From NCBI GenBank assembly GCA_905234185.1, contig CAJOGC010000002.1, positions 103,949-167,948 on the forward strand: a DNA stretch of 64,000 bases, read 5' to 3'. The notes beneath the pieces were generated by a model. That model was not told where the DNA came from and did not search any database. It saw only the letters and a list, made by a program, of their open reading frames with translations. Within the stretch, counting starts at the first letter, position 1. Each line of letters begins with the position of its first letter. This stretch comes from an uncultured Alphaproteobacteria bacterium. Its GTDB lineage: Bacteria > Pseudomonadota > Alphaproteobacteria > Rs-D84. The position numbers and the translations under genes were made by a program. Shown piece after piece: positions 1 through 60,765 of the stretch.

Positions 1-1212
1 GTCCAGGGTGGCGATACAAATATGATTGTTTCTGGGAAATCTGGCAATCAATACATATTTTATTTGCGGGCCGAACCGACTAATTCGTCCGAAATCACCT
101 ATTCCCAGGTAGAGATTATAATGGACGGCAACGCAACTTTGCCTGGTGCGATTGGTACGACCCCGGCACCATCTGGCGGAATGTCATCTGTATTTAAGAA
201 GTCCAGATCTGCTTCCAACACAGTTGGTGTTGATGGTGAAGATTTTGGTTGGATAAAATCTATGAAAATCGACCCATCCGAATTCCGGTTTGATTTGGAT
301 ATATTTGTTCCGAACCCGGACGATTATGTAATTGCCCCGGAACGCGTGTGGCATGATCGCATATTCACATATATTGACTTTGGGGACAAAGTTATCGCGA
401 TGACCCAACGTCCGGTTGTTTCATTACTGGTCGAAGGTGGCGAATCCCCGGTCGGGTTCCGTACCGACGGCCAAGATGGACGTTTGCTGATTGTCGAGGC
501 GGTTGGTGACATGGTTTTGCGCAGTGGTCAACGCATCGTTTGCATTAAAAAACGTGAAAAACCGTTCCTTATCGCCGACACGAACAGTGTTATGGCCCTG
601 GCCGAGGCTAATGTCGCACAATCTATGATGTCGGGTCAATCATTAAACAATATGGCTTATGGCTATGATATGGCGGCGATAAACAGCGCGGGCATAAATT
701 ATACCGGAACGCCGGTTATGGTTGGCAATACAGCCAACACTGCAACCACTGGCTATTACATGCCGGCCGGCTTTATCGCAGGCCAGGCTTATCCACAACC
801 AACACAAAATGTTGGCACATCATCTGGCGCGGTGACAATGATGCCGACCGAACGCGTGACCGCTGGTTCGTATTTGCCCCAATCCAATATTCCAATTATT
901 TCCAGCAACCAAAGCGGTGTTGCCGTTGAATTGAAGTCCGATACTTCGGTAAAGGCGTTGGACGATTACTGGGTTGGATTATTAGCAAAATTTAGTGGTG
1001 AAAATGGCCAAGGATTATTAACCCCATACAAAGACAAAGTGTTCTTTGCGGTTGATGAACAAGGTGTAGGCGATTTGGGTTCCGGCGCAACAACGGCACG
1101 TCTGTATCGTTTGCGTATCGGGCCAATGGCTGATATTGATGCGGCACAAAAATTGTGCGACCAATTGTTAAAATTCAGTGGCGCCAGTTGCAATGTCGTC
1201 AGAATACAGTAA
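1..1212 (+). CDS. virB9: VirB9/TrbG-like type IV secretion core protein (5' end outside window) with C-terminal SPOR-like domain
   Basis: The frame is open from nt 1, with no stop before the ATG at 22. GNQYIFYLRAEP and PERVWHDRIFTYIDF...GRLLIVEAVGDMVLRSGQRIVCIKK fit the beta-rich VirB9/TrbG domains. A TrbI/VirB10-type gene follows directly. The last ~80 aa (YWVGLLAKF...ARLYRLRIGPMADIDAAQKLCDQL...CNVVRIQ) fit the SPOR pattern. Confidence 0.6.
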   Translation, partial: VQGGDTNMIVSGKSGNQYIFYLRAEPTNSSEITYSQVEIIMDGNATLPGAIGTTPAPSGGMSSVFKKSRSASNTVGVDGEDFGWIKSMKIDPSEFRFDLDIFVPNPDDYVIAPERVWHDRIFTYIDFGDKVIAMTQRPVVSLLVEGGESPVGFRTDGQDGRLLIVEAVGDMVLRSGQRIVCIKKREKPFLIADTNSVMALAEANVAQSMMSGQSLNNMAYGYDMAAINSAGINYTGTPVMVGNTANTATTGYYMPAGFIAGQAYPQPTQNVGTSSGAVTMMPTERVTAGSYLPQSNIPIISSNQSGVAVELKSDTSVKALDDYWVGLLAKFSGENGQGLLTPYKDKVFFAVDEQGVGDLGSGATTARLYRLRIGPMADIDAAQKLCDQLLKFSGASCNVVRIQ

Positions 1213-1233
1213 TTATTTTGGGTGCGGATTAAT

Positions 1234-3621
1234 ATGAGTAAACTTGGCGAACAATTTTCAGAACTGCGCAAATCAACACCAAAATATGTCCAGTGGTTAT
1301 TGCTGGCCGCGGCACTTGTTATCGTTTTAATTTTGTTGACTTTGCTTATGACGGGGCCAAAAAATAAAACGGCCCGGTCTGCCCAAAAATCTATGGACGA
1401 AACGCCTATCGAAGTTCGTATGATTACGATAAATGCCGACAACCAAGAAGTTTCTGTTGATAAAATCGATTGGGCCAATGTGATTGTCGGTGAGAAAAAG
1501 AGTACCACGATAACAATCAAAACAAATGCACCGACACGCGTATCTATGACCCAGAACAAGAATATTGTTGGGTTTTCTGCACAAACCACATGTACGGATG
1601 CGACCGTTATAAATGCAAAACTATCATGCAATATATATCTTAAATTCGAACCGACAACCGCCATGTCTCCGGAAACAGTGACATTGTCTGTTTATTGGCG
1701 CGCTGAAAACGACCCCGAAACAATGAATAACACGAAAAAGATTTCTGTCGTTTTGGGTGCCACCGCACCGGTCGTGCGACCTGAACCACAACCAATTGTC
1801 GAACCAGAACCGCTGTTTTCCGACGATTATGACGAACTTGACGATTATGATGAATATGATGACAATGTCGAACCACACCCAACAATTCGTGCGGAAATAG
1901 AATCAATTGCGCCGGCGTTGCCGTTCAATTCCGATATCGTGGAACCCGCACCCGTTGTGGAACGACCATCTGAATCTTGTTCTGATTTTGCCTTTCCGGG
2001 GTATGGTCCAAATGGAAATCAAATTGGCTGGATAAAACCCGAACGCGGCGGATATTATTTTCATCCTTTCTCGGACAAAGATTGTAAAAATGCAACGGGA
2101 ATCTATAACCCGGCAACCGGTGTTATTACCGATATCAGCGGCAATGGAACACGTATCGGAACCGATGCCGAACATATTGGGTATGCGGCCATAAATGATG
2201 GCGCATTGCCGGCACTAAATCCGGCCCCGCGTAGCGCAAGAACCGCATCTAATACCACGGTTTCTTCGACCAATGTTCCTATTGCTGGCATGGGCAAGGT
2301 TATTGTAAAGAAGGAACCAGATGTTGAATTTGCCTCCAGCGGCACAGACACCGTCACAAATACAGTTGCTTACGATCGCACCTTTATATTGCGTCAATAC
2401 AAACCTATTCCGGCGACAATCGTTTCCGATGTTCGTGCCGACCCATCGTTATACAAGCAGGGAAATACACTGCCTGTACGGGCGACGGTTGATCGCAATG
2501 TATATTCCGATAATGGACGCACTGTTATTATCCCGGCGGGGACAATGTTGTTGGGGTATCTGACCGGCACCATGCCCGGACCATATACGGCTATTGGTCG
2601 GATGGAGGTTAATTGGTATCAATTTGTTTTACCAAATGGTGTTGAGTTTAATTTCAGTGGTGCCAATGATCCGTTTTCTGGCGATGCCCAGGGGCGTGTC
2701 GGCGTTCCTGGTCGTGGCAGCACCGATTATTTGGAACAATTTGTTATGCCAATGTTAACGGCAATTGTGCCGGCGGCGGTGAATATGATTGCCCCGGTTG
2801 CCGACAAATTCGTTAATCAAATTGATTTGGACAATAATACAGTTGTACAAAGCGGAACAGTGCGATCGTCTGAATTGGCAAAGAACGAGATTATCACCGC
2901 ATGGAACCAAGTTGCCCAGAAATTATTGGTTGATATGATGGATAACACCGTGCCACCATTTACAATTCCGGCGGGGACCCGTATCACTGTTTATTCACCG
3001 GCTGATTTACAAGTCACGTGTGGCGCCCCAGGTACCAGTAATAAAAAGTGTGCCGTTGCTAAATACAGCGACGCAAAACGCCAATTGTGGAAAAATAGTG
3101 CCGAACCAGATTACTATGACGGTTCATGGGTGGGCCAGGCGCGTTCGTTCAATCTGGAACAATATTGCACAACAGACACTAATAATTTAAGGCGCGCATT
3201 ACCATACAGCGATGTTGGGGCTGAATTACAAAAACTTGGTTATTCATACAGCACGCTTGTTGCGTATTGCCAGGCAAGTAATTACCAGGCGATAAATAAT
3301 GCGCGTCAGGATGCCATTTATCAAAACCAACAAAACCCAAACAACAAAAACAGTGTTGCAAACGCCACCGCCCAGGGGACCAAAACATATAATGAACAGG
3401 TTCTTGGATTGAAATACAATGACGATGGTTCTATTAAGAATCCGTATCAGTCGGAAAAGAAACCAGAATCACAACAACCGACTAATGTCATCACATGTGA
3501 TGATGGTTTGGCACCGGACCAATACGGGTGTTGCACGGGTGAAATATACACAGATATGGGCGAACAGGGTTTCAATTGCTGTCCCCAATCTGGTGGCGAT
3601 TGTTTCCCGCCGATTTTGTGA
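1234..3621 (+). CDS. virB10: VirB10/TrbI-family type IV secretion protein with extra N-terminal Ig-like region and long Cys-rich C-terminal extension
   Basis: It has an N-terminal TM helix (WLLLAAALVIVLILLTLLM) and an acidic, Pro-rich linker (DDYDELDDYDEYDD, PVVRPEPQPIVEPEP). The TrbI/VirB10 core is present (YKPIPATIVSDV...IIPAGTMLLGYL...GRMEVNWYQFVLPNGVEF...DAQGRVGVPG...IPAGTRITVYSP). ATG 1234 is preferred over GTG 1222 from the ORF track. Confidence 0.75.
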   Translation: MSKLGEQFSELRKSTPKYVQWLLLAAALVIVLILLTLLMTGPKNKTARSAQKSMDETPIEVRMITINADNQEVSVDKIDWANVIVGEKKSTTITIKTNAPTRVSMTQNKNIVGFSAQTTCTDATVINAKLSCNIYLKFEPTTAMSPETVTLSVYWRAENDPETMNNTKKISVVLGATAPVVRPEPQPIVEPEPLFSDDYDELDDYDEYDDNVEPHPTIRAEIESIAPALPFNSDIVEPAPVVERPSESCSDFAFPGYGPNGNQIGWIKPERGGYYFHPFSDKDCKNATGIYNPATGVITDISGNGTRIGTDAEHIGYAAINDGALPALNPAPRSARTASNTTVSSTNVPIAGMGKVIVKKEPDVEFASSGTDTVTNTVAYDRTFILRQYKPIPATIVSDVRADPSLYKQGNTLPVRATVDRNVYSDNGRTVIIPAGTMLLGYLTGTMPGPYTAIGRMEVNWYQFVLPNGVEFNFSGANDPFSGDAQGRVGVPGRGSTDYLEQFVMPMLTAIVPAAVNMIAPVADKFVNQIDLDNNTVVQSGTVRSSELAKNEIITAWNQVAQKLLVDMMDNTVPPFTIPAGTRITVYSPADLQVTCGAPGTSNKKCAVAKYSDAKRQLWKNSAEPDYYDGSWVGQARSFNLEQYCTTDTNNLRRALPYSDVGAELQKLGYSYSTLVAYCQASNYQAINNARQDAIYQNQQNPNNKNSVANATAQGTKTYNEQVLGLKYNDDGSIKNPYQSEKKPESQQPTNVITCDDGLAPDQYGCCTGEIYTDMGEQGFNCCPQSGGDCFPPIL

Positions 3622-11278: not shown

Positions 11279-12961
11279 ATGAAACAAAAGTCATACATTA
11301 TTGACGATAAACAACTGATGTCCGAATGGGACTGGGATGCCAATGTTGGTTTAGATCCGAAAACATTAACCCGTGGATCAAATAAAAAGGCATGGTGGGT
11401 ATGTTCGGTATGTGGGCATAAATGGTGTGCCGATATACATCATAGAGCCGTAAGAAAACAAGGTTGTTTAAACTGCCGATATGTATATAAAAAACAACTT
11501 GCTTCTATTTTGTCTGAAACACATCCAAAAGTCCTTAAATACTGGGATTTTTCAAAAAATAAATTGATAACCCCCGAAATTGTCAGCCAGAATTCGCGTA
11601 AAAGCGTTTGGTGGCATTGTCCAGATTGTGGCCATGAATGGGAAGAAAAAATAAAAAATCAGGTTAAAAAATTAGTTTGGTGCCCACATTGTAAGAAGGG
11701 AATTAAAGATTTGGCTTCTGTGGAACCAGAACTTGCAAAAGAATGGCATAAAACAAAAAATACTGATGCCCCAGAACATATTTCGTATGCTTCTAACAAA
11801 TATGCATGGTGGAAATGCCAAAAGTGTGGTTACGAATGGAAAGCCAGAATAGCCAACAGGTCAATATTGAAACGGGGGTGTCCTTGTTGTTCTGGTGGTG
11901 CGGTTGTCGTCGGAATAAACGATTTAAAAACAAAGTTTCCGCATATAGCAAAAGAATGGCACCCTACAAAAAACGGTGAACTTTTACCAGAACAAGTCAC
12001 TTCTGGTACAAGAAAGAAAGTTTGGTGGCAATGCCCACTGGGACACGAATACCAAGCAACGGTAGGACACAGGACATCACAAAATGGCACAGGGTGTCCA
12101 ATATGTTATTCAGGACGTCAAACATCATTCGCTGAACAGGCTGTATTCTTTTATGTAAAACAATTATATCCCGACGCACTAAGCAGGTATAAGGCAGACT
12201 TTTTGGGAAAATTTGAATTGGATATTTATATCCCATCAATCAAATATGCGATAGAATACGATGGTGAAGCATGGCATAAAGCGAATAAATTAGAACGCGA
12301 AAAACGAAAGTATCAATTGTGCAAACAGAACGGCATCACATTACTCAGATTACGAGAAAAGGAACCAGAACATGATGCTGAAGTGGCAGATGATATAATT
12401 TGTGTGAAAAATCTATACGAACACAGAAATCTTGAAATGGTATTAAGACGGTTATTGGTGAAATTGAACCCGCAATCGGTAATGCCTGACAACTTTGTTA
12501 ATTTGGCCAGGGATAATCATAAAATCTTGGAATATAAAAAATCGGCCATATCAGAATCATTGATGTCCGTCAGACCAGATATTGCGATGGAATGGCATCC
12601 AACAAAAAATGGTAACCTGTTACCAAGTATGTTTAAAGCAGGTTCTGAACATAAAGTATGGTGGATTTGTCCAAAGTGTGCCACCGAATATCAAACAAGT
12701 ATTGCTCATAGAACAGATAAAAAGGTTCCAACAGGATGCCCAAAGTGTGGCAAAGAGCGAAGTGACTTAGCGAAAAGTGTCGCTGTAAATATGTTAGATT
12801 TGAAAACGAAAAAAGTATTAAAAACATTCGTTTCTGTATCAGATGCATCAAGGCAAATGAAAATCAATTTATCTAACATATGTATGGCTTGCAAAGGCCA
12901 ACGCAACCAAGCTGGTGGGTACGGTTGGGAATATAATTTAAAAATATGCAAAAGAAAATAA
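11279..12961 (+). CDS. multi-zinc-ribbon protein with central DUF559/Vsr-like PD-(D/E)XK nuclease core and C-terminal NUMOD1-like HTH (homing-endonuclease-like)
   Basis: There are five repeats of [EW..KN...P + WW.C..CGH.W......R....CP.C]. The central block FELDIYIPSIKYAIEYDGEAWH...GITLLRLRE resembles the DUF559 core. The tail (FVSVSDASRQMKINLSNICMACKG..NQAGGYGWEY) resembles NUMOD1/IENR-type DNA-binding modules. Confidence 0.75.
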   Translation: MKQKSYIIDDKQLMSEWDWDANVGLDPKTLTRGSNKKAWWVCSVCGHKWCADIHHRAVRKQGCLNCRYVYKKQLASILSETHPKVLKYWDFSKNKLITPEIVSQNSRKSVWWHCPDCGHEWEEKIKNQVKKLVWCPHCKKGIKDLASVEPELAKEWHKTKNTDAPEHISYASNKYAWWKCQKCGYEWKARIANRSILKRGCPCCSGGAVVVGINDLKTKFPHIAKEWHPTKNGELLPEQVTSGTRKKVWWQCPLGHEYQATVGHRTSQNGTGCPICYSGRQTSFAEQAVFFYVKQLYPDALSRYKADFLGKFELDIYIPSIKYAIEYDGEAWHKANKLEREKRKYQLCKQNGITLLRLREKEPEHDAEVADDIICVKNLYEHRNLEMVLRRLLVKLNPQSVMPDNFVNLARDNHKILEYKKSAISESLMSVRPDIAMEWHPTKNGNLLPSMFKAGSEHKVWWICPKCATEYQTSIAHRTDKKVPTGCPKCGKERSDLAKSVAVNMLDLKTKKVLKTFVSVSDASRQMKINLSNICMACKGQRNQAGGYGWEYNLKICKRK

Positions 12962-33143: not shown

Positions 33144-33274
33144 TTTATCCCCCTTTTTATCAAAAAACACCGGTAAATGATTTAAATCGCCAATCATTAT
33201 ATGTTTTAACAAAATTATTTCAAGCCCTATTTTTGAAAAAATTCGCATTTTTTGAGCCGGACGGAAAAATATTA

Positions 33275-33302
33275 TTGCAAAACGAACAAAGAATATTATA
33301 AT
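33275..33302 (+). promoter_or_regulatory. sigma70-like promoter upstream of the tRNA-Gln unit
   Basis: TTGCAA (33275..33280), a 16-nt spacer, then TATAAT (33297..33302). It lies 13 nt upstream of the 11-nt tRNA 5' fragment, not of the intact tRNA. Confidence 0.55.
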
Positions 33303-33314
33303 TTGCAATACCTT

Positions 33315-33400
33315 TGGGGTGTCGTTCCGTTTCCTCGGCTAACGCCTCGCCCGGAATGACAACGACTATGTCATGTGGATATAGTTCGTTCCAAGTTCAC
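33315..33400 (+). repeat. copy of tRNA-Gln nt 1-11 followed by PAL-C palindromic element
   Basis: TGGGGTGTCGT is identical to the first 11 nt of the tRNA. It is followed by TCCGTTTCCTCGGCTAACGCCTCGCCCGGAATGACAACGAC and 34 nt of spacer. Confidence 0.75.
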
Positions 33401-33474
33401 TGGGGTGTCGTCTAATGGTAGGACAAGAGATTTTGGTTCTCTTTATCATGGTTCGAATCCGTGCGCCCCAACCA
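33401..33474 (+). tRNA. tRNA-Gln (anticodon TTG)
   Basis: Manual cloverleaf: acceptor TGGGGTG/CGCCCCA, D arm GTCT-AATGGTA-GGAC, anticodon arm AGAGA-TTTTGGT-TCTCT, T arm CATGG-TTCGAAT-CCGTG, and an encoded ACCA. Confidence 0.9.
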
Positions 33475-33697
33475 AAAATTCAACCGGCATTTTTGCCGGT
33501 TTAATTTTTGATCGCGCACGGATCGGTCAGAGTGCCAACGGCACGCATGACCAATACGAGAATACACAATTAGAAAAATCTTAAAAAATCGACGGATGGA
33601 GATTTTTTTGATTTTGATTATTGCGTATCGAGGCAGCGGCGCCCCAACCAAAAATTAAAACCGCCCATCTGGGCGGTTTATTTTATTGTGTCGACAA

Positions 33698-34329: not shown

Positions 34330-34358
34330 TTGCAACCAGTAATAATTATGTCTAGAAT
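34330..34358 (+). promoter_or_regulatory. sigma70-like promoter upstream of the tRNA-Glu unit
   Basis: TTGCAA (34330..34335), a 17-nt spacer, then TAGAAT (34353..34358). The first 11-nt tRNA fragment begins 11 nt downstream. Confidence 0.55.
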
Positions 34359-34368
34359 ATTGCCACAC

Positions 34369-34498
34369 GGTCCCATCGTTCCGTTCCCTCGCTCCGCTCG
34401 CCCGGAATGACAACGACGACGGGACGATAGACGGTCCCATCGTTCCGTTCCCTCGCTCCGCTCGCCCGGAATGACAACGACGACGGGACGACATAGAC
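34369..34498 (+). repeat. tandem 64/66-bp units: tRNA-Glu nt 1-11 + PAL-C palindromic element, x2
   Basis: Each unit is GGTCCCATCGT + TCCGTTCCCTCGCTCCGCTCGCCCGGAATGACAACGACGACGGGACG(A/ACA)TAGAC, at 34369..34432 and 34433..34498. The intact tRNA follows directly. Confidence 0.85.
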
Positions 34499-34573
34499 GG
34501 TCCCATCGTCTAGCGGTTAGGACATCGGATTCTCATTCCGGTAACATGGGTTCGATTCCCATTGGGACTGCCA
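34499..34573 (+). tRNA. tRNA-Glu (anticodon CTC)
   Basis: Manual cloverleaf: acceptor GGTCCCA/TGGGACT (G1-U72 wobble), D arm GTCT-AGCGGTTA-GGAC, anticodon arm TCGGA-TTCTCAT-TCCGG, T arm ATGGG-TTCGATT-CCCAT, and an encoded GCCA. Confidence 0.9.
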
Positions 34574-34664
34574 AATTTTGTTATTATGCACAATTAAGAA
34601 ATTTGAATATCATATTTTTGTAATGTAATTTTTATAAAAAACACCGGTAAAAGCCGGCGTTTTT

Positions 34665-35228
34665 TTACCTTTTTGGCGTTACAAAATAAATATCCGCTAC
34701 ACGTGGCGGGATTTCGATATTTTTTGAATCATAAATATACTTTTCCCCGGCTTTTTTTATCGCTATTTCACCAATACCGACTCCGGTTTCATTTTTACCA
34801 CGACTATCGTTTTGATGTGGATAACGCGTACTGTCAATAACACGCATTTGAAAACTATCCATATCACAACGCATAATTTTATCAACAAACATACAGTGCC
34901 CATTACCATCGGGAAACACCACAACTAAAATACAATTTTCTGTGGGTTGATTGGTGAATTGCCAATACTTAAAATCATCTGCGTGTTCATGTATAAACGC
35001 AAAGTCTTTACAAAACAGGCGATTTATCTTTATAAAATTATGTTTTCGCAGAAACGCACGCACTTCGACCAATGCGCGTTTATACCCCGATTGTTCAAGA
35101 CACCAATAAACAAAACCACTGCAATCCATATAAAAAAATCGTCGATCATCAATCAAATCTATTCGATTATCATGACTGTATTCAGATTGAAAATCATTGG
35201 TCAAAAATTTTTTGATAAAATCGTTCAT
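34665..35228 (-). CDS. NlpC/P60-like cysteine peptidase-fold protein without signal peptide
   Basis: A catalytic-type block (FYMDCSGFVYWCLEQSG) and a later His block (GNGHCMFV) are present. The start is moved to ATG 35228 (MNDFIKKF) because the track N-terminus translates the flanking terminator hairpin. Confidence 0.6.
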   Translation of the reverse strand: MNDFIKKFLTNDFQSEYSHDNRIDLIDDRRFFYMDCSGFVYWCLEQSGYKRALVEVRAFLRKHNFIKINRLFCKDFAFIHEHADDFKYWQFTNQPTENCILVVVFPDGNGHCMFVDKIMRCDMDSFQMRVIDSTRYPHQNDSRGKNETGVGIGEIAIKKAGEKYIYDSKNIEIPPRVADIYFVTPKR

Positions 35229-55578: not shown

Positions 55579-56817
55579 ATGAATATCATCCGGCGGATTT
55601 TACCGTGCATATTTTTGGCGGCAATGTTTGTTGTGCCCATGCCTGCATTGGCCGAATGGGGTGTTGTTGACCGATTAAATCTTGCGCCGTTTATACCACT
55701 GGTATTGGACGCAATGATGGCAATTGCATCCGGCGGATATGAATTCTTTGTTGGGAATGGCGACGGTATTATTTATCTTTTGGTATGGGGATTTTTAGCG
55801 ATAACGATTGCATTATACCTTGTAAAATTATATTTACCAAAAAATTGGTCGGGAATATTTGGTTTTTCTGGTGGTGGCGAAATGGCGGACGGAAAAATCG
55901 GGGTCCAAACCATCATTTACAATGTCCTTAAGCCATGTATGCGTGGAATAATCGCGGCCGCAATTCTATTACAAATTCGCCCGGTTATGTTGACCGAAGT
56001 GCTTGTTAACCCGTTTTTACAGTTTGGCGCACTGTATACCCATGCCATTACGGAAACCATTAATGACACCGGTGTTAATACGCAAAAAATCAAATGTCCT
56101 GAATCCATAGTGCAAAAAGAATGGATTTCGGAATCTTCGTGCAATTTTCTGATTCAATCAGTATCTGATTTGTCGGCGGCAAACAATACCATTATTAAGC
56201 GCGGCTTCGAATACATTACATCTGGATTTGCCGGATTAATGACAATATTTCCGCGTGGCGAACACGCATTTCTGAATATTATTACCGGTGTAATTTTAGT
56301 TGCGACTTTTTTCAGCAGCAATCTTTTCATGGCATTGCTGATTATAGAGGCAATATTTAGATTTGGTATGGCATTGGTGTTATATCCATTTCATGTTTTA
56401 TCATATGTTGCAAAGCCTAATGATAAATGGCTGGACATATGGCCTGCATTCGCCGGTATTACCAAAGAATTGCAAAGACTGGTTATCACAATGATTATGT
56501 GTTCATTTATGCTGTGCATAAACATTGCAATTATACGGGCACTGTTCACATGGAACACATCCATATTTACGGTTGCGTCCGATGGTGTCGTACCCGGCGG
56601 ATTCGGATCACATTCTATATTGTGGCTGTCATCGATATTAACATTTTATCTGATGTTCAAATTATTTAACATGACACAAAGACAACTGGAAACATATGTC
56701 GGTGGTCGCGGTGAATTGTATGACCAAGTGATTGGCGACACAAAAACACTTTGGTCACGAATCAAAGATACAACAAAAACAATCGGCATGTCCGCTGGAT
56801 GGATTAAAAAGAAATGA
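55579..56817 (+). CDS. VirB6/TrbL-like polytopic membrane protein, paralog 2
   Basis: It has a signal peptide (FVVPMPALA), multiple TM helices, a central-loop Cys pair (KCPES...SSCNF), the block LVLYPFHVLSYVAKPNDKW, and a KKK tail. Confidence 0.5.
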   Translation: MNIIRRILPCIFLAAMFVVPMPALAEWGVVDRLNLAPFIPLVLDAMMAIASGGYEFFVGNGDGIIYLLVWGFLAITIALYLVKLYLPKNWSGIFGFSGGGEMADGKIGVQTIIYNVLKPCMRGIIAAAILLQIRPVMLTEVLVNPFLQFGALYTHAITETINDTGVNTQKIKCPESIVQKEWISESSCNFLIQSVSDLSAANNTIIKRGFEYITSGFAGLMTIFPRGEHAFLNIITGVILVATFFSSNLFMALLIIEAIFRFGMALVLYPFHVLSYVAKPNDKWLDIWPAFAGITKELQRLVITMIMCSFMLCINIAIIRALFTWNTSIFTVASDGVVPGGFGSHSILWLSSILTFYLMFKLFNMTQRQLETYVGGRGELYDQVIGDTKTLWSRIKDTTKTIGMSAGWIKKK

Positions 56818-58025
56818 ACAATATCGCAGGCAATTTTATCGATGGCGTTGTGCAGTGCTATGGCTGTCCGATATTTGATCGGCTTTTCCAGATTGTATCC
56901 AGCGCCGCCGCCGCGGTTTATAATAAAATGGCATTTTTGGCCACATTGATATTCTGTGTATTGTTTGCATTTTTTGTAGTCAATGCGGTGTGGCAAAACA
57001 TTAAAAAAGATATTCCCGATCCGTGGTACCAAAAATCCGTACGACCGGTTATAATTAACTCTTTGGTGGCGCTGACATTTTTATGGATGGGTGTCGGATT
57101 GCCACGGCTTATCACCACAGCAACATTTGAACCCGTCGCCCAGATATCATTAATCTATACACAAAGCATGCTTAATATCGACGAAAAAATTGTTAATGAG
57201 CGCGTCACATATCAACCCATCCAGATGAATGACGATGGTTTTTTCACAGTCGGTTTACGCGACAAAGTAATTATGCTTATGAAAACAACAATAACGCAAT
57301 TCCAGTCTTATATGAAACTGGGCATCGCGGTTATGGATACCGCATTCTCTTGGCGCGCATTGCTGGGGGTTGGTGCATTAATTAAGCATATAATTTTGTT
57401 CTTTATCGGATTGTATATTTTTTGGGCATTTTTTAGATTGTTTTTCAGATTCTGTTGTTATTTTGCAGATATAATTGTCGCGATGGCCATGTTTGCATTT
57501 TTCTTTCCTTTATCATTAGTGCTTATCGCGTTTCGTGGCGCAGATAGTGTTCCGTCTTGGATATCGGGGTTGGGCAAAGATGTTGGTCTAAATCAATTGA
57601 AAAATCTTGTTAATGCAATCATCGCATTATCTGCCGCGGTTATAACATATACGGTTGTCATGGTAATCATCGCAAAGTTTTTTGCATCCCCAGATGCGTC
57701 CGTCAACGATATTATGAATGCAATTACAACGGGGAATATATTCGACCTGGATTTATCGGATGACAACCTGGCAATGCTTAGTGTTACGGGAACGCTTGTG
57801 CTGGTTTATGTTGTGAATTTTATAACAAGCAAAAAACAAATATCCGAAGTCACTAAAATGATATTATCTGCATTTAATGTAAGCACCAAAAATGATGTTA
57901 GCGAACAATTAGCAAATGATGCAATGCAATTAACATCGGCGGCATTAAAAACCGCGAAACAAATTGGCACAACCATCATATCCGGTGGTGATAAAAAGGA
58001 TGACAAAGCACCAGATAAAAAATGA
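56814..58025 (+). CDS. VirB6/TrbL-like polytopic membrane protein, paralog 3
   Basis: The start overlaps the previous stop (ATGA). It has an N-terminal CYGCPIF motif, the block FFFPLSLVLIAFRG, and a Lys/Asp-rich tail. Confidence 0.5.
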   Translation: MNNIAGNFIDGVVQCYGCPIFDRLFQIVSSAAAAVYNKMAFLATLIFCVLFAFFVVNAVWQNIKKDIPDPWYQKSVRPVIINSLVALTFLWMGVGLPRLITTATFEPVAQISLIYTQSMLNIDEKIVNERVTYQPIQMNDDGFFTVGLRDKVIMLMKTTITQFQSYMKLGIAVMDTAFSWRALLGVGALIKHIILFFIGLYIFWAFFRLFFRFCCYFADIIVAMAMFAFFFPLSLVLIAFRGADSVPSWISGLGKDVGLNQLKNLVNAIIALSAAVITYTVVMVIIAKFFASPDASVNDIMNAITTGNIFDLDLSDDNLAMLSVTGTLVLVYVVNFITSKKQISEVTKMILSAFNVSTKNDVSEQLANDAMQLTSAALKTAKQIGTTIISGGDKKDDKAPDKK

Positions 58026-59458
58026 AAGCACAGGTAATATTAATTCTTGTTCGTTTTATTATGGGCGCAATCGCGTTGGGACTGGGCATTTGGTATCTGT
58101 CGTCATCCATTAGCGGTGATTCGATAACATACACCAGTATGGACAACTTTCTGAATGCTATTGGTGCAGGTGACGATATTGCCAACGCAAACGGTTGCTT
58201 TATGTGCAAATACATTACCGAATTATTTGGGGTATTGGGACGTGCAACGGAATTATTCTGGAATGCGATTGTGGGTCATCTTTGGTTATTAATGGCATTG
58301 GGATTTGGTGTGTTTTTGGTTGTATACACGGGACGCTATATTTTCGATGCGGCCAAAAAGACTGCGACATTGGACACATCTGAAAAGAAAATAGAAATCA
58401 TGACATGGTTCAACCGTGTATGGCGCCAAGGTGTACGTGTTTTAATTGCCGGCGCGTTTCTTGGCGTATTTGGCATGGGTGGCACAACCGCACTAAAATA
58501 TGTGACAAAAATCACCGTGACTCCGGTGATGTTTGTCGGGGCTGAATTAGGGATGGTGGCATCCGGCGTATCAAGTGCAACCCAGTGTGGCGCAATGGGA
58601 ACCGTTGCTGATTCGGATGATATACTTAATCCTGTATTACAGCCGTTTATGTGTTCGATTGGAAACCTGAATGCCGTGATGCTTGCGGGTGCCGGTGGCG
58701 GTTTTTCATTAATGAATTATGCGTGGTTGGGTATGGGCGGCGGTGCGATTACCTGGGTCGCGGGGCTTGCACTGGTCATTATGTTTTTGATTATCGGATT
58801 TGATTTATTTTTTCAGGTATTAAGTATCGTTATGAAATTAATATTCATTATTATATTCATGCCGTTATTTATCGCGGCATATGCGTTTGAACCCGTATGG
58901 AAAGCCATGTCAAATTTGACATCCCGTGCATTAGACATGCTGGTATCATCCGCTGTAAAAATTGTCGGCATATCATTAAAGGTCGTGATTTTATATGCAA
59001 CCGTATCATATTCTGCTGATGCGTTTTTCCCGGGACCCGTTGATGGGTTTAGTACTATTTTACCGCCAATGATGGGTCAAACGGTTGAAAATCCAGATGC
59101 ACAAACACTTTCTGTAATAAATACATTCCGTGAATGCGAACATGTTGCATTGGTTAATGGTGAAATGGATAAAGATTTATTCAAAAATTGCTTTACTGCG
59201 CACCGCGCAACCGTAGAGCGCAAATATCCCGGTGCTTTTGACTTTATGGGCGACGGGTGGGGATTTATGATGCTGATGATTGGTCTGTTTGCGTTGTATT
59301 ATTGGGTCGTTTCGCCAAAAATCGATGCTATACTAACACCCACAAAGGGAACAGAATCATTCGATTTCGGCACTAATATAAAGCAACTTGGTAAAAACAT
59401 TTGGAAATCTCCCATCCAAATAACGGAAAAAATAATATCTGTATTCGGCAAAAAATGA
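58022..59458 (+). CDS. VirB6/TrbL-like polytopic membrane protein, paralog 4
   Basis: The start overlaps the previous stop (ATGA). It has a CFMCKYI motif, a loop Cys pair (QCGAM...FMCSIG), and IIFMPLFIAAYAFEPVWKAM, which is close to the VirB6 ...GPLILTGYIFDRT...W pattern. Confidence 0.55.
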   Translation: MKAQVILILVRFIMGAIALGLGIWYLSSSISGDSITYTSMDNFLNAIGAGDDIANANGCFMCKYITELFGVLGRATELFWNAIVGHLWLLMALGFGVFLVVYTGRYIFDAAKKTATLDTSEKKIEIMTWFNRVWRQGVRVLIAGAFLGVFGMGGTTALKYVTKITVTPVMFVGAELGMVASGVSSATQCGAMGTVADSDDILNPVLQPFMCSIGNLNAVMLAGAGGGFSLMNYAWLGMGGGAITWVAGLALVIMFLIIGFDLFFQVLSIVMKLIFIIIFMPLFIAAYAFEPVWKAMSNLTSRALDMLVSSAVKIVGISLKVVILYATVSYSADAFFPGPVDGFSTILPPMMGQTVENPDAQTLSVINTFRECEHVALVNGEMDKDLFKNCFTAHRATVERKYPGAFDFMGDGWGFMMLMIGLFALYYWVVSPKIDAILTPTKGTESFDFGTNIKQLGKNIWKSPIQITEKIISVFGKK

Positions 59459-60765
59459 TGAAATATATTAAACAATTTTTATCAAAAATGCTTATCGCGA
59501 TTATGTGCATATCGCTGTCGTTTTCTGCGATTGCTGCATCGGATACACCATCTGGGGACATGGGCGAACACGAAACATTCGTGACCGAACACAGCATAAC
59601 AATGTTTAATAGTTCATTGACCGATGACGTCACGCAATTCCAAGACGGTTTCCAGAAACAACTTGTTCGTGATTATGTCCCAATCGAAGCACGTGTTGGC
59701 ATCGCCATGATGAATGGGTTAACACATGTTGCAAAAATATTGGATACTTCTCTTGTCCATTTTATGGTTATTTTCATAATCGTAATGTATCTGTTCTGGA
59801 TAATGTTCGAAGGATACAATTTTGTCCAAAAAGGCGATGGTAATATTAAAAAGTTAATTATGGACATCGGTAAAAAAGCAATATGGATTATCATTTGGGT
59901 TTCTGTTCTTGAATTCGGACCAGCACGTTTATTCATGTGGGCGATGGGTCCAATTGTTTCGATTGGAACAGCATTGTCGGATTTTATACTAAACGCGGTT
60001 GCATCTGTATCTGGTGCAATTTTACCGGACACATGTGGGGCAATTCGCGAATATGCCGTGGCAAACACGGCCCCGGACATGCTTATTGACGCAACCGCCG
60101 CGGCCGATTTAATGTGTGTTCCATCGCGCTTATCTGGATTCTTTACAACTGGTATTGTTGCGGGTTGGAAATGGATGATTGCCGGTATTGGCCACAGCGC
60201 ATTTAGTTTTACCATGGGCGCAATATTTATAATAGTCTTTGCATGGAACGCATGGAAATTCGCATTAATGGCACTGGGGGTTATAATGGATTTGTTTTTA
60301 GGGGTATTGTTGCTGCCATTTACGGCGTTTGCTGAAACAATAACCCCGACATCGTACAAGGGGCTGGCCGGGAATATATTTAATGGATTTCTTAAACTAT
60401 TTAATCCAGGATCGGTTAAATTGGACGCGCAAATAAATCGTTTTATAAATGCAGCGATTTATTTTGTATCATTGTCGATTGTAATCGCTGTTTGTGCGGC
60501 GTTGCTTTATGGCGTAATTGGGTCAGATTTATCGGCCACGGTTCCAACGCTTGAAAACGATGGTTTTATTCCGACATTGCTTACCGGGTTATTAGTCGGA
60601 TATTTTGCAAATATGGCCGGCGACATTGCCAAGAATGTTGGCGGTGGTGCGTCTGTTGACGCCACATTTGGCAACAATTTTGGCGAAGATGTAAAAACAT
60701 TAGCAAAAGATACATATAAAGTCGCCAAAGACTGGGCCAAAGCCATCGCAGAAAGCAAGAAATAA
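59455..60765 (+). CDS. VirB6/TrbL-like polytopic membrane protein, paralog 5
   Basis: The start is moved to ATG 59455 (MMKYIKQF..., signal peptide SFSAIAA), overlapping the previous stop. It has a loop Cys pair (DTCGAI...LMCVPS), the block LLLPFTAFAE, and a Lys-rich tail. Confidence 0.5.
   Translation: MMKYIKQFLSKMLIAIMCISLSFSAIAASDTPSGDMGEHETFVTEHSITMFNSSLTDDVTQFQDGFQKQLVRDYVPIEARVGIAMMNGLTHVAKILDTSLVHFMVIFIIVMYLFWIMFEGYNFVQKGDGNIKKLIMDIGKKAIWIIIWVSVLEFGPARLFMWAMGPIVSIGTALSDFILNAVASVSGAILPDTCGAIREYAVANTAPDMLIDATAAADLMCVPSRLSGFFTTGIVAGWKWMIAGIGHSAFSFTMGAIFIIVFAWNAWKFALMALGVIMDLFLGVLLLPFTAFAETITPTSYKGLAGNIFNGFLKLFNPGSVKLDAQINRFINAAIYFVSLSIVIAVCAALLYGVIGSDLSATVPTLENDGFIPTLLTGLLVGYFANMAGDIAKNVGGGASVDATFGNNFGEDVKTLAKDTYKVAKDWAKAIAESKK

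Follow-up and report, generated by a model that had tools for sequence, protein, structure and literature searches.

Directly upstream of an intact tRNA-Glu gene in the DNA of an uncultured alphaproteobacterium (contig CAJOGC010000002.1; the whole stretch analysed, 64,000 nucleotides (nt), is called the window here), two near-identical units of 64 and 66 bp stood in tandem, and a single related unit preceded the neighbouring tRNA-Gln gene. We propose, with a probability of roughly one half, that each unit is a small palindromic element, similar to the repetitive extragenic palindromic (REP) sequences of other Alphaproteobacteria, lodged between promoter and tRNA body at CGT/C (the slash marks the insertion point) together with a duplicate of its target. 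Its copy number would shift by recombination or slippage, and the transcribed leader that carries it would be removed by RNase P.

ARAGORN and Rfam identified only two tRNA genes in the window, tRNA-Glu(CTC) at 34499-34573 (Rfam score 61.7 bits) and tRNA-Gln(TTG) at 33401-33474, about 1 kb apart; both lie on the plus strand, as do the parts of the two loci given next. The order at tRNA-Glu was a promoter-like site, a leader of 10 nt (34359-34368), unit 1 (64 nt, 34369-34432), unit 2 (66 nt, 34433-34498), and the intact tRNA. The promoter-like site, given as TTGCAA-17-TAGAAT in an earlier note on this DNA, was present at 34330-34358, with its two hexamers at 34330-34335 and 34353-34358; the TAGAAT box is found directly 5′ of the tRNA in L152, a relative lacking the insert (relatives are designated by L numbers). 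The two tandem units of the same note, each beginning with tRNA nt 1-11, were recovered by reading the sequence, by Tandem Repeats Finder (an array of 64-nt period at 34367-34509, 2.2 copies, 97% matches) and by a repeat search of the window (a perfect direct repeat of 61 nt at a spacing of 64). Both units opened with GGTCCCATCGT, identical to tRNA-Glu nt 1-11, followed by a core TCCGTTCCCTCGCTCCGCTCGCCCGGAATGACAACGAC, an inverted arm GACGACGGGAC overlapping the end of the core, and a short spacer. They differed only in their final bases, GATAGAC in unit 1 and GACATAGAC in unit 2. In unit 1, the direct duplicate occupied 34369-34379, the REP-like core (TCCG through CCCGGAATGACAACGAC, with inner stem TTCCG/CGGAA, assigned by alignment and from the literature) 34380-34417, the inverted copy of tRNA-Glu nt 2-12 (one mismatch, 3 nt shared with the core end) 34415-34425, and the spacer, whose sequence differs from lineage to lineage, 34426-34432. 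The corresponding parts of unit 2 were located at 34433-34443, 34444-34481, 34479-34489, and 34490-34498. The insertion point in the tRNA was the T11/C12 boundary, within the CGTC of nt 9-12. The first 11 nt of each unit had been interpreted as a mimic of the acceptor and D strand of the tRNA; they are an exact target duplicate and no mimic. A terminator-like hairpin with a T run was predicted 3′ of the gene, at 34644-34667.

The tRNA-Gln gene, cited earlier as a parallel case, proved comparable: the same core followed nt 11 of both tRNAs, and each insert was bracketed by nt 1-11 of its own target. A promoter-like site, TTGCAA-16-TATAAT (33275-33302), preceded a single unit (33315-33400) that consisted of TGGGGTGTCGT, the direct duplicate of tRNA-Gln nt 1-11 (33315-33325); the REP-like core, TCCGTTTCCTCGGCTAACGCCTCGCCCGGAATGACAACGAC (33326-33366), found by the repeat search to be that of the Glu units; and a right flank (33367-33400) that holds a further small hairpin, CTATGTC/GGATATAG, and TCGTTCC for a second time. 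Local alignment of this flank gave no significant similarity to either tRNA. The two tRNAs share TCGTCTA at nt 8-14, and the insertion point fell within CGTC at nt 9-12 in both. Three occurrences of the 19-mer CGCCCGGAATGACAACGAC were counted in the window where chance predicts 0.01, and each lay upstream of one of these two genes.

Relatives were gathered by exact-protein look-ups of two flanking genes, one genome scan, one metagenome scan, and look-ups anchored on MerR, that is, on the conserved gyrA-merR-x-tRNA-Glu neighbourhood. The nearest named genome was L091, a metagenome-assembled genome (MAG) of Candidatus Enterousia, a gut alphaproteobacterium. Empty and filled sites were found at both tRNAs. 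At empty tRNA-Gln sites (L146, L152, L154, and L157), the promoter-like site was kept and TATAAT was followed by GCTATGCTTT and then immediately by TGGGGTGTCGTCTAATGG, so that the tRNA began about 12 nt after TATAAT. At filled sites (the window and L138), the upstream DNA was identical to that of the empty sites and was followed by TGGGGTGTCGT, the unit, and TGGGGTGTCGTCTAATGG; the insert is therefore bracketed by a target duplicate. In L154, L140, and L146 the duplicate may reach into the leader. A decay product remained at the tRNA-Gln gene of L150, a 22-nt remnant of TGGGGT plus the 16 nt TCCAAAATGCCTTTAC.

Copy number varied within the species, among assemblies of 97-99% identity, and between species. 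Two Glu units were present in the window, in L001-L004 (including ENA ERZ28573687 and ENA ERZ1667847), and in JGI contig L145 of another species (83-85% identity to the window), where the two are identical to each other and the tRNA-Gln locus, L138 on the same contig, has one unit. Two Glu units with different cores were found in L140 and in L150 (82%). A single Glu unit was present in L005-L008 (ERZ28613750, ERZ27280243, ERZ1029112, and ERZ1039166), which are 97-98.7% identical to the window and hence of the same species; L005 also had one Gln unit. Single Glu units likewise occurred in L146 (85%), L091 (78.5%), and L154 (78.5%), and the tRNA-Glu site was empty in L152 (79%), L157 (80%), and L160 (73%). 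Coverage did not extend to tRNA-Gln in L006-L008, L140, L091, or L160. Because filled and empty states were poorly sorted by divergence, several gains or losses must have occurred. The duplicates are able to recombine, so an empty site may be either primary or the product of a precise loss, and the direction of any single event could equally be gain or loss. The difference between strains of one and two units is what unequal recombination or slippage, suggested earlier as the source of the tandem and in our view plausible, would produce. The possibility that the tandem would collapse on re-sequencing can be set aside: seven or more assemblies, made independently with different assemblers and from different samples, agreed, and two units were present in independent assemblies, so the tandem is not an assembly artefact.

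Both pairings proposed for the Glu units were present: TTCCG can pair with CGGAA, and GTCCCATCGT with ACGACGGGAC except for a single A.C mismatch. Each unit was predicted to fold alone as a hairpin of -22.4 kcal/mol. When a unit and the tRNA were folded together, hairpin and cloverleaf were both predicted and the tRNA fold was retained. In an alignment of 11 units, two blocks were invariant throughout: TCGTTCC, in which nt 8-11 of the tRNA are followed by TCC, and G(A)ATGACAACG. The stretch GAATGACAACG was identical in all 11, its unpaired part included, as was GACA, which on the minus strand reads TGTC directly before ATTCC. The loop between the blocks was highly variable, ranging from the short CGCCTGCGCG of L154 and L150 unit 1, which forms a 7-bp stem with a 4-nt loop, to forms of 20-45 nt; the inner stem was 5-7 bp, with 93% of cells paired. 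The hairpin was conserved, with 91.6% of cells paired versus 30-60% for slid-partner controls, and with an innermost scored pair of G-C in seven units and of C-G, U-A, and U.G in one unit each. Mismatches without compensation occurred in the outer stem of the window (A.C) and of L091 (C.A). In L140, L146, and L150, the arm of the Glu unit, GACGATGGGAC, reproduced tRNA-Glu nt 2-12 in inverted orientation without a mismatch. Three core types were distinguished, CTCGCTCCGCTCG, CTCGGC-N3-4-GCCTCG, and the short CGCCTGCGCG; one type was common to the window, L145, and L091, and another to L146, L140 unit 2, and the Gln units. Comparison of wobble and mismatch between strands, as an indicator of selection on RNA or DNA, gave a mixed outcome. 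A search of Rfam 15 at the gathering threshold and at E up to 10 passed only the two tRNAs, with nothing credible on the units, and a literature search with the unit sequence as a string returned primer sequences only.

The core has relatives outside the clade. About 40 of the 116 genome matches to the 17-mer CCCGGAATGACAACGAC were hairpins in Bradyrhizobium, Pseudolabrys, Tardiphaga, Reyranella, and related MAGs, with the form GGATTCCGGG, a GC-rich stem-loop, and CCCGGAATGAC. These hairpins are the published Br-REP2, CGAGATTCCGGGTTCGGCTCTT-CGAGCCGCCCCGGAATGA, which B. japonicum carries in no fewer than 50 of its intergenic regions (Hahn et al. 2016, PMC5082802). REPs tagged with CGTC predominate in Alphaproteobacteria; the class has an unpaired tag of CGTC, TGTC, or CCTC, stems that begin with A-T, variable loops in Bradyrhizobium, and no dedicated transposase, and the Rickettsia palindromic elements (RPEs) have been grouped with it (Di Nocera et al. 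2013, PMC3733652). The enzyme mobilising these repeats, their mode of spread, and whether they continue to gain copies are not known (PMC3733652). On its minus strand, the window core reads TGTC followed by ATTCCGG...CCGGAA(C), a tag and then an AT-initial stem, as in the definition of the class (PMC3733652); in unit 1, the tag corresponds to the unpaired GACA of the plus strand. Aligned with a copy from Pseudolabrys (L135), the core agreed at 33 of 34 positions, and at 22 of 23 outside the 17-mer used for the search. Its local identity to the Br-REP2 consensus CGAGATTCCGGGTTCGGCTCTTCGAGCCGCCCCGGAATGA extended over 10-17 nt (p 0.001-0.009), with a left arm shorter than that of Br-REP2 (TTCCG versus ATTCCGGG). 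On these grounds we treat the core as a true relative of the CGTC-tagged class, Br-REP2 included, and not as a new family. We considered whether the tail AACGAC also belongs to the Bradyrhizobium repeat and rejected this: none of 49 unselected copies carried it, so that part of the 17-mer match was selected by the search word. Viral origin was likewise rejected, as a scan of viral contigs with CCGGAATGACAACGAC gave 12 matches, all unrelated coding sequence and attributable to chance. The tRNA-targeting palindromic family postulated in the earlier note thus survives in part. A palindromic core is present at two tRNAs, with empty sites in relatives; it was found only at two neighbouring tRNAs that share TCGTCTA, with no further copy in 149 kb, and the family is not new, given its relation to Br-REP2 and the CGTC REPs, whose Bradyrhizobium-type copies in our matches never adjoined tRNAs.

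We infer the following course of events. The 11-nt duplicate would have arisen as a target duplication when the element entered. Since tRNA nt 1-11 are present on both sides of the insert, the tRNA downstream is complete and the original promoter would read through the insert. A search for promoters within the Glu units found none; the sole promoter-like site lies upstream of the first unit, and the units would therefore form part of the transcript, as a 5′ leader of 64-130 nt. This leader is predicted to fold into independent hairpins, and RNase P would cut at the last copy of nt 1, releasing a normal tRNA. With an intact tRNA recovered by that cleavage, the insert would be mostly a tolerated passenger. 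The direct repeats, of 11-13 nt, would permit slipped-strand or unequal recombination, which would have given rise to the second tandem unit and to the difference of one versus two units between strains; the same recombination could excise units precisely and restore the empty site. Such repeats would explain the variable copy number within a species, the identical tandem units of the window and L145, precise losses, and broken contigs.

Several observations weigh against this reading. Of the 57 open reading frames (ORFs) of at least 90 aa in the window, 50 were scanned with Pfam and yielded no transposase, integrase, or HUH enzyme, and the precomputed Pfam marks of the other seven included no recombinase. 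The insert lacks terminal inverted repeats: its ends, TCCGTT... on one side and ...GATAGAC, ...GTTCAC, or ...GCAAC on the other, are not inverted copies of each other. In 149 kb of clade DNA (ten loci), the core occurred only at tRNA-Glu and tRNA-Gln, unlike the many dispersed intergenic copies, often head-to-head dimers, that mark the REP class. We know of no REPs that make target duplications. A simple insertion leaves the exact inverted copy of tRNA nt 2-12 in the Glu unit unaccounted for. Core type did not track genome divergence, and the units were 85-100% conserved versus 45-80% for flanking intergenic DNA and 95-97% for the tRNA; the Glu unit was identical to that of L145 at 64 of 64 positions, at a genome identity of about 83%. 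The tandem units of L150, and those of L140, differed in core and were identical in arms and spacers, contrary to what plain duplication by slippage predicts. The high conservation, the core types, and the dissimilar tandem units, as read from the aligned sequences, would fit a mobile element that was active recently or repeatedly, repeats that homogenise each other, or a leader RNA under selection.

Some of these difficulties are eased by other explanations, each with difficulties of its own. The inverted arm would be expected if the unit had been made from the tRNA-Glu gene itself by template switching during replication, as a direct-inverted-direct micro-triplication in which the 5′ part of the tRNA is followed by its 5′ half, copied in inverted orientation with an internal deletion, and then by the tRNA once more, with the hairpin as a by-product; the core would later have been copied to the nearby tRNA-Gln via the common TCGTCTA microhomology. 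In L140, L146, and L150 the inverted segment is exact, and of the 12 positions of the right arm CCGGAATGACAA, 11 agree with tRNA-Glu nt 32-43 (anticodon loop and 3′ stem) read as the reverse complement (shuffle p ~0.006), in a match collinear with inverted nt 2-12. This origin would also account for the lack of other copies in the 149 kb and of a transposase, and it agrees with the core of the Gln unit being Glu-like and not derived from Gln; in L154, the resemblance of the spacer to its own leader hints at a duplicate that may begin 5′ of nt 1. Neither the left half of the unit nor its loop, however, has any tRNA similarity, two separate deletions would be needed, the Gln-specific 11-nt duplicate would demand a second complex event, and the near-identity to the Pseudolabrys REP outside the searched word, together with the tag and AT-stem, would be coincidence. 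Because the left half and loop are left without a source and the outside REP match is much stronger, we rank template switching below the REP reading and regard it as unlikely. Conservation is one argument that the units are instead a selected RNA element of the pre-tRNA leader, tuning processing by RNase P or stability, acting as a decoy strand against mispairing of the arm, or released as a small hairpin RNA. The units are far more conserved than their intergenic neighbours, TCGTTCC and GAATGACAACG do not vary even where unpaired, a compensatory change is seen in the stem, and the leader arm could otherwise pair with the true 5′ strand of the tRNA (-16.7 kcal/mol, predicted). Against this, close relatives lack the unit (sites are empty at 79-80% identity), copy number varies within the species, the tRNA-Gln of L150 is down to a decayed remnant, outer-stem mismatches are uncompensated (those of the window and L091, and a G to C change in the distal duplicate of L150), and no Rfam family matched; conservation might alternatively reflect homogenisation between repeats or recent spread. 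We hold a selected leader RNA to be doubtful.

The dissimilar tandem units raise the alternative that arrays grew by repeated, independent insertion of different REP variants at one CGT/C target, with no duplication of units. The clearly different cores of the two units in L150 and in L140 argue for this, as do the incongruence between core types and genome identity and the presence of an intact CGTC target only in the tRNA-proximal copy of the duplicate. It is nonetheless improbable: the units of the window and of L145 are identical or nearly so, as duplication predicts, source copies are absent elsewhere in the 149 kb of clade DNA, and each insertion would have had to regenerate both the tRNA-specific arm and the spacer, which are identical between dissimilar units. 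Very improbable, finally, is an origin of the 11-nt duplicates as attL/attR scars of an integrase element with its interior deleted, or of the tandem units in faulty assembly. Genes for tRNAs are commonly used as integration sites, 3′-end duplications typical of such scars exist at the same loci (33463-33508 versus 33639-33684, and in L149), and three contigs break within tRNA-Glu (L148, L149, and L159). The duplicates are nevertheless specific to each tRNA (GGTCCCATCGT GGTCCCA... versus TGGGGTGTCGT TGGGGTG...) around a common core and so must derive from the target and not from a single attP; moreover, it is the 5′ end that is duplicated, around an insert of just 53-75 nt, and an artefact would have to recur in all the agreeing assemblies. 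Insertion of a REP-like element followed by changes in copy number remains our preferred reading. A bolder version holds that the units are the footprints of a still-active CGTC-REP hairpin element that recognises CGTC at tRNA nt 9-12 and inserts at CGT/C with target duplication, or alternatively that they are a selected pre-tRNA leader RNA controlling the maturation of tRNA-Glu and tRNA-Gln; we consider it speculative and would not expect it to hold.

Two further candidates were rejected. One is a decayed tRNA pseudogene in direct orientation, for which the T-loop-like GTTCGTTCC of the Gln unit and TGGGAC as an acceptor 3′ strand were considered; local alignments to both tRNAs in this orientation were no better than shuffles (p 0.2-0.9). 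A threonine-rich mini-ORF in unit 1, ATGACAACGACGACGGGACGATAG, lacks ribosome-binding spacing, and its frame and stop are lost in L146 and in unit 2.

Other features were noted at and around the two loci. On the minus strand at 34416-34443, a 10-bp hairpin is formed by the inverted arm, the spacer, and the nt 1-11 copy after them, and a T-rich run follows; the structure received a terminator-like score for antisense transcription. Terminator hairpins resembling one another, AAAAAACACCGGTAAA..GCCGG(T)GTTTTTT, recur at 33155-33177 and 34629-34651, and also in L140 and L148, downstream of several genes; they may constitute a small family of repeated bidirectional terminators. Within the Gln unit lies a promoter-like ATGACA-18-TATAGT (33356-33385; 10 of 12 matches), of which the -35 box is the conserved ATGACA of the core and the TATAGT is also present in L138; by its sequence, this site could drive tRNA-Gln from within the insert. 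The last 12 nt of tRNA-Gln and its terminator-like hairpin (33463-33508) are repeated 176 nt downstream (33639-33684) with 74% identity over 46 nt, which looks like the attL/attR traces left by an element, either small or deleted, that had integrated at the 3′ end of the tRNA. A second scar of 3′-end duplication affects the other tRNA in L149, a contig of another species: its final ~290 nt, next to tRNA-Glu, contain the tRNA-Glu 3′ end and trailer, TTCCCGTTGGGACTGCCAAAAAATAAAGCGCAC, twice around an insert of ~150 nt. This contig, L148, and L159, which are independent and from related species, all end within tRNA-Glu, as expected if upstream tandem units or strain variation break the assembly. 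The tRNA-Gln gene is directed away from a MarR/efflux operon in the window (33401-33474) and towards it in L152 (12057-12130), L154 (2853-2926), and L157; the tRNA-Gln segment was thus inverted in the window lineage. Elsewhere, the start of the window (22-3621) encodes CagX-like and TrbI-like conjugation or type IV secretion proteins, a 560-aa protein at 11279-12961 combines five DUF4379 treble-clef zinc-finger repeats with a DUF2726 region, and four consecutive plus-strand ORFs of 403-478 aa at 55579-60765 had no Pfam match at E up to 1e-5.

A REP-like core at two defined targets, with empty and filled sites, a duplicate, variants, and copy-number differences within a species, amounts to a rare natural experiment on insertion, loss, and amplification. 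A bacterial tRNA gene can evidently accommodate a structured insert of 64-143 extra bases between its promoter and the tRNA body. At tRNA-Glu, the arrays break metagenome contigs; they might be used as strain markers. If the element is indeed an active CGTC REP, these loci would provide the first insertion-site evidence on the movement of such repeats; if the high conservation means function, a kind of pre-tRNA leader element not yet described would be implied.

Known systems share some of these properties. Integrases of genomic islands and prophages duplicate the 3′ part of a tRNA gene from a fixed attP; here, too, a tRNA gene is targeted and a duplicated tRNA segment keeps it intact, but the duplicate is of the 5′ part and derives from the target, and the insert measures only tens of bases. 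Replication template switching, including quasi-palindrome correction, fork stalling and template switching (FoSTeS), and microhomology-mediated break-induced replication (MMBIR), yields inverted micro-triplications and templated insertions without importing foreign sequence. The Glu unit has such a direct-inverted-direct layout, tRNA-Glu nt 1-11, 12-2, and 1-11 around a hairpin; unlike those products, its core has an outside relative. Miniature inverted-repeat transposable elements (MITEs) with target-site duplications, such as Correia or Nezha elements, which derive from insertion sequences with a DDE transposase, are likewise small non-autonomous inserts with a direct target duplicate and with empty and filled sites in relatives. 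The direct duplication of fixed length that characterises them was found here as 11 nt at both tRNAs, with empty sites in L146, L152, L154, L157, and L160. The tRNA-leader insert differs in lacking terminal inverted repeats and in a duplicate that starts exactly at tRNA nt 1 at both targets; no parent insertion sequence was seen in the window.

RPEs are palindromic repeats of 100-150 bp in Alphaproteobacteria with reduced genomes, present in many copies and often in-frame in protein genes. Like them by description, the tRNA-leader units would be tolerated in genes since insertion preserves function. RPEs are longer and multicopy, and to our knowledge no duplication of a tRNA 5′ end has been described for them, whereas the units described here duplicate one. 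From the CGTC REPs and Br-REP2, the tRNA-leader element differs in being undispersed, at two tRNA 5′ ends only in the 149 kb, in sitting within a putatively transcribed tRNA leader, in its bracketing 11-nt target duplicate, joined at tRNA-Glu by an inverted target copy, and in its polymorphic tandem arrays. It shares with them a short hairpin whose AT-initial stem follows an unpaired tag of four nucleotides (TGTC, which is listed among the variants of CGTC), a right arm, CCCGGAATGA, identical to the Br-REP2 consensus, an alphaproteobacterial host, and, in the ORFs of the window that were scanned, the lack of an associated transposase. We regard the element as a curiosity, a variant within a class of repeats already described, and not as a new system.

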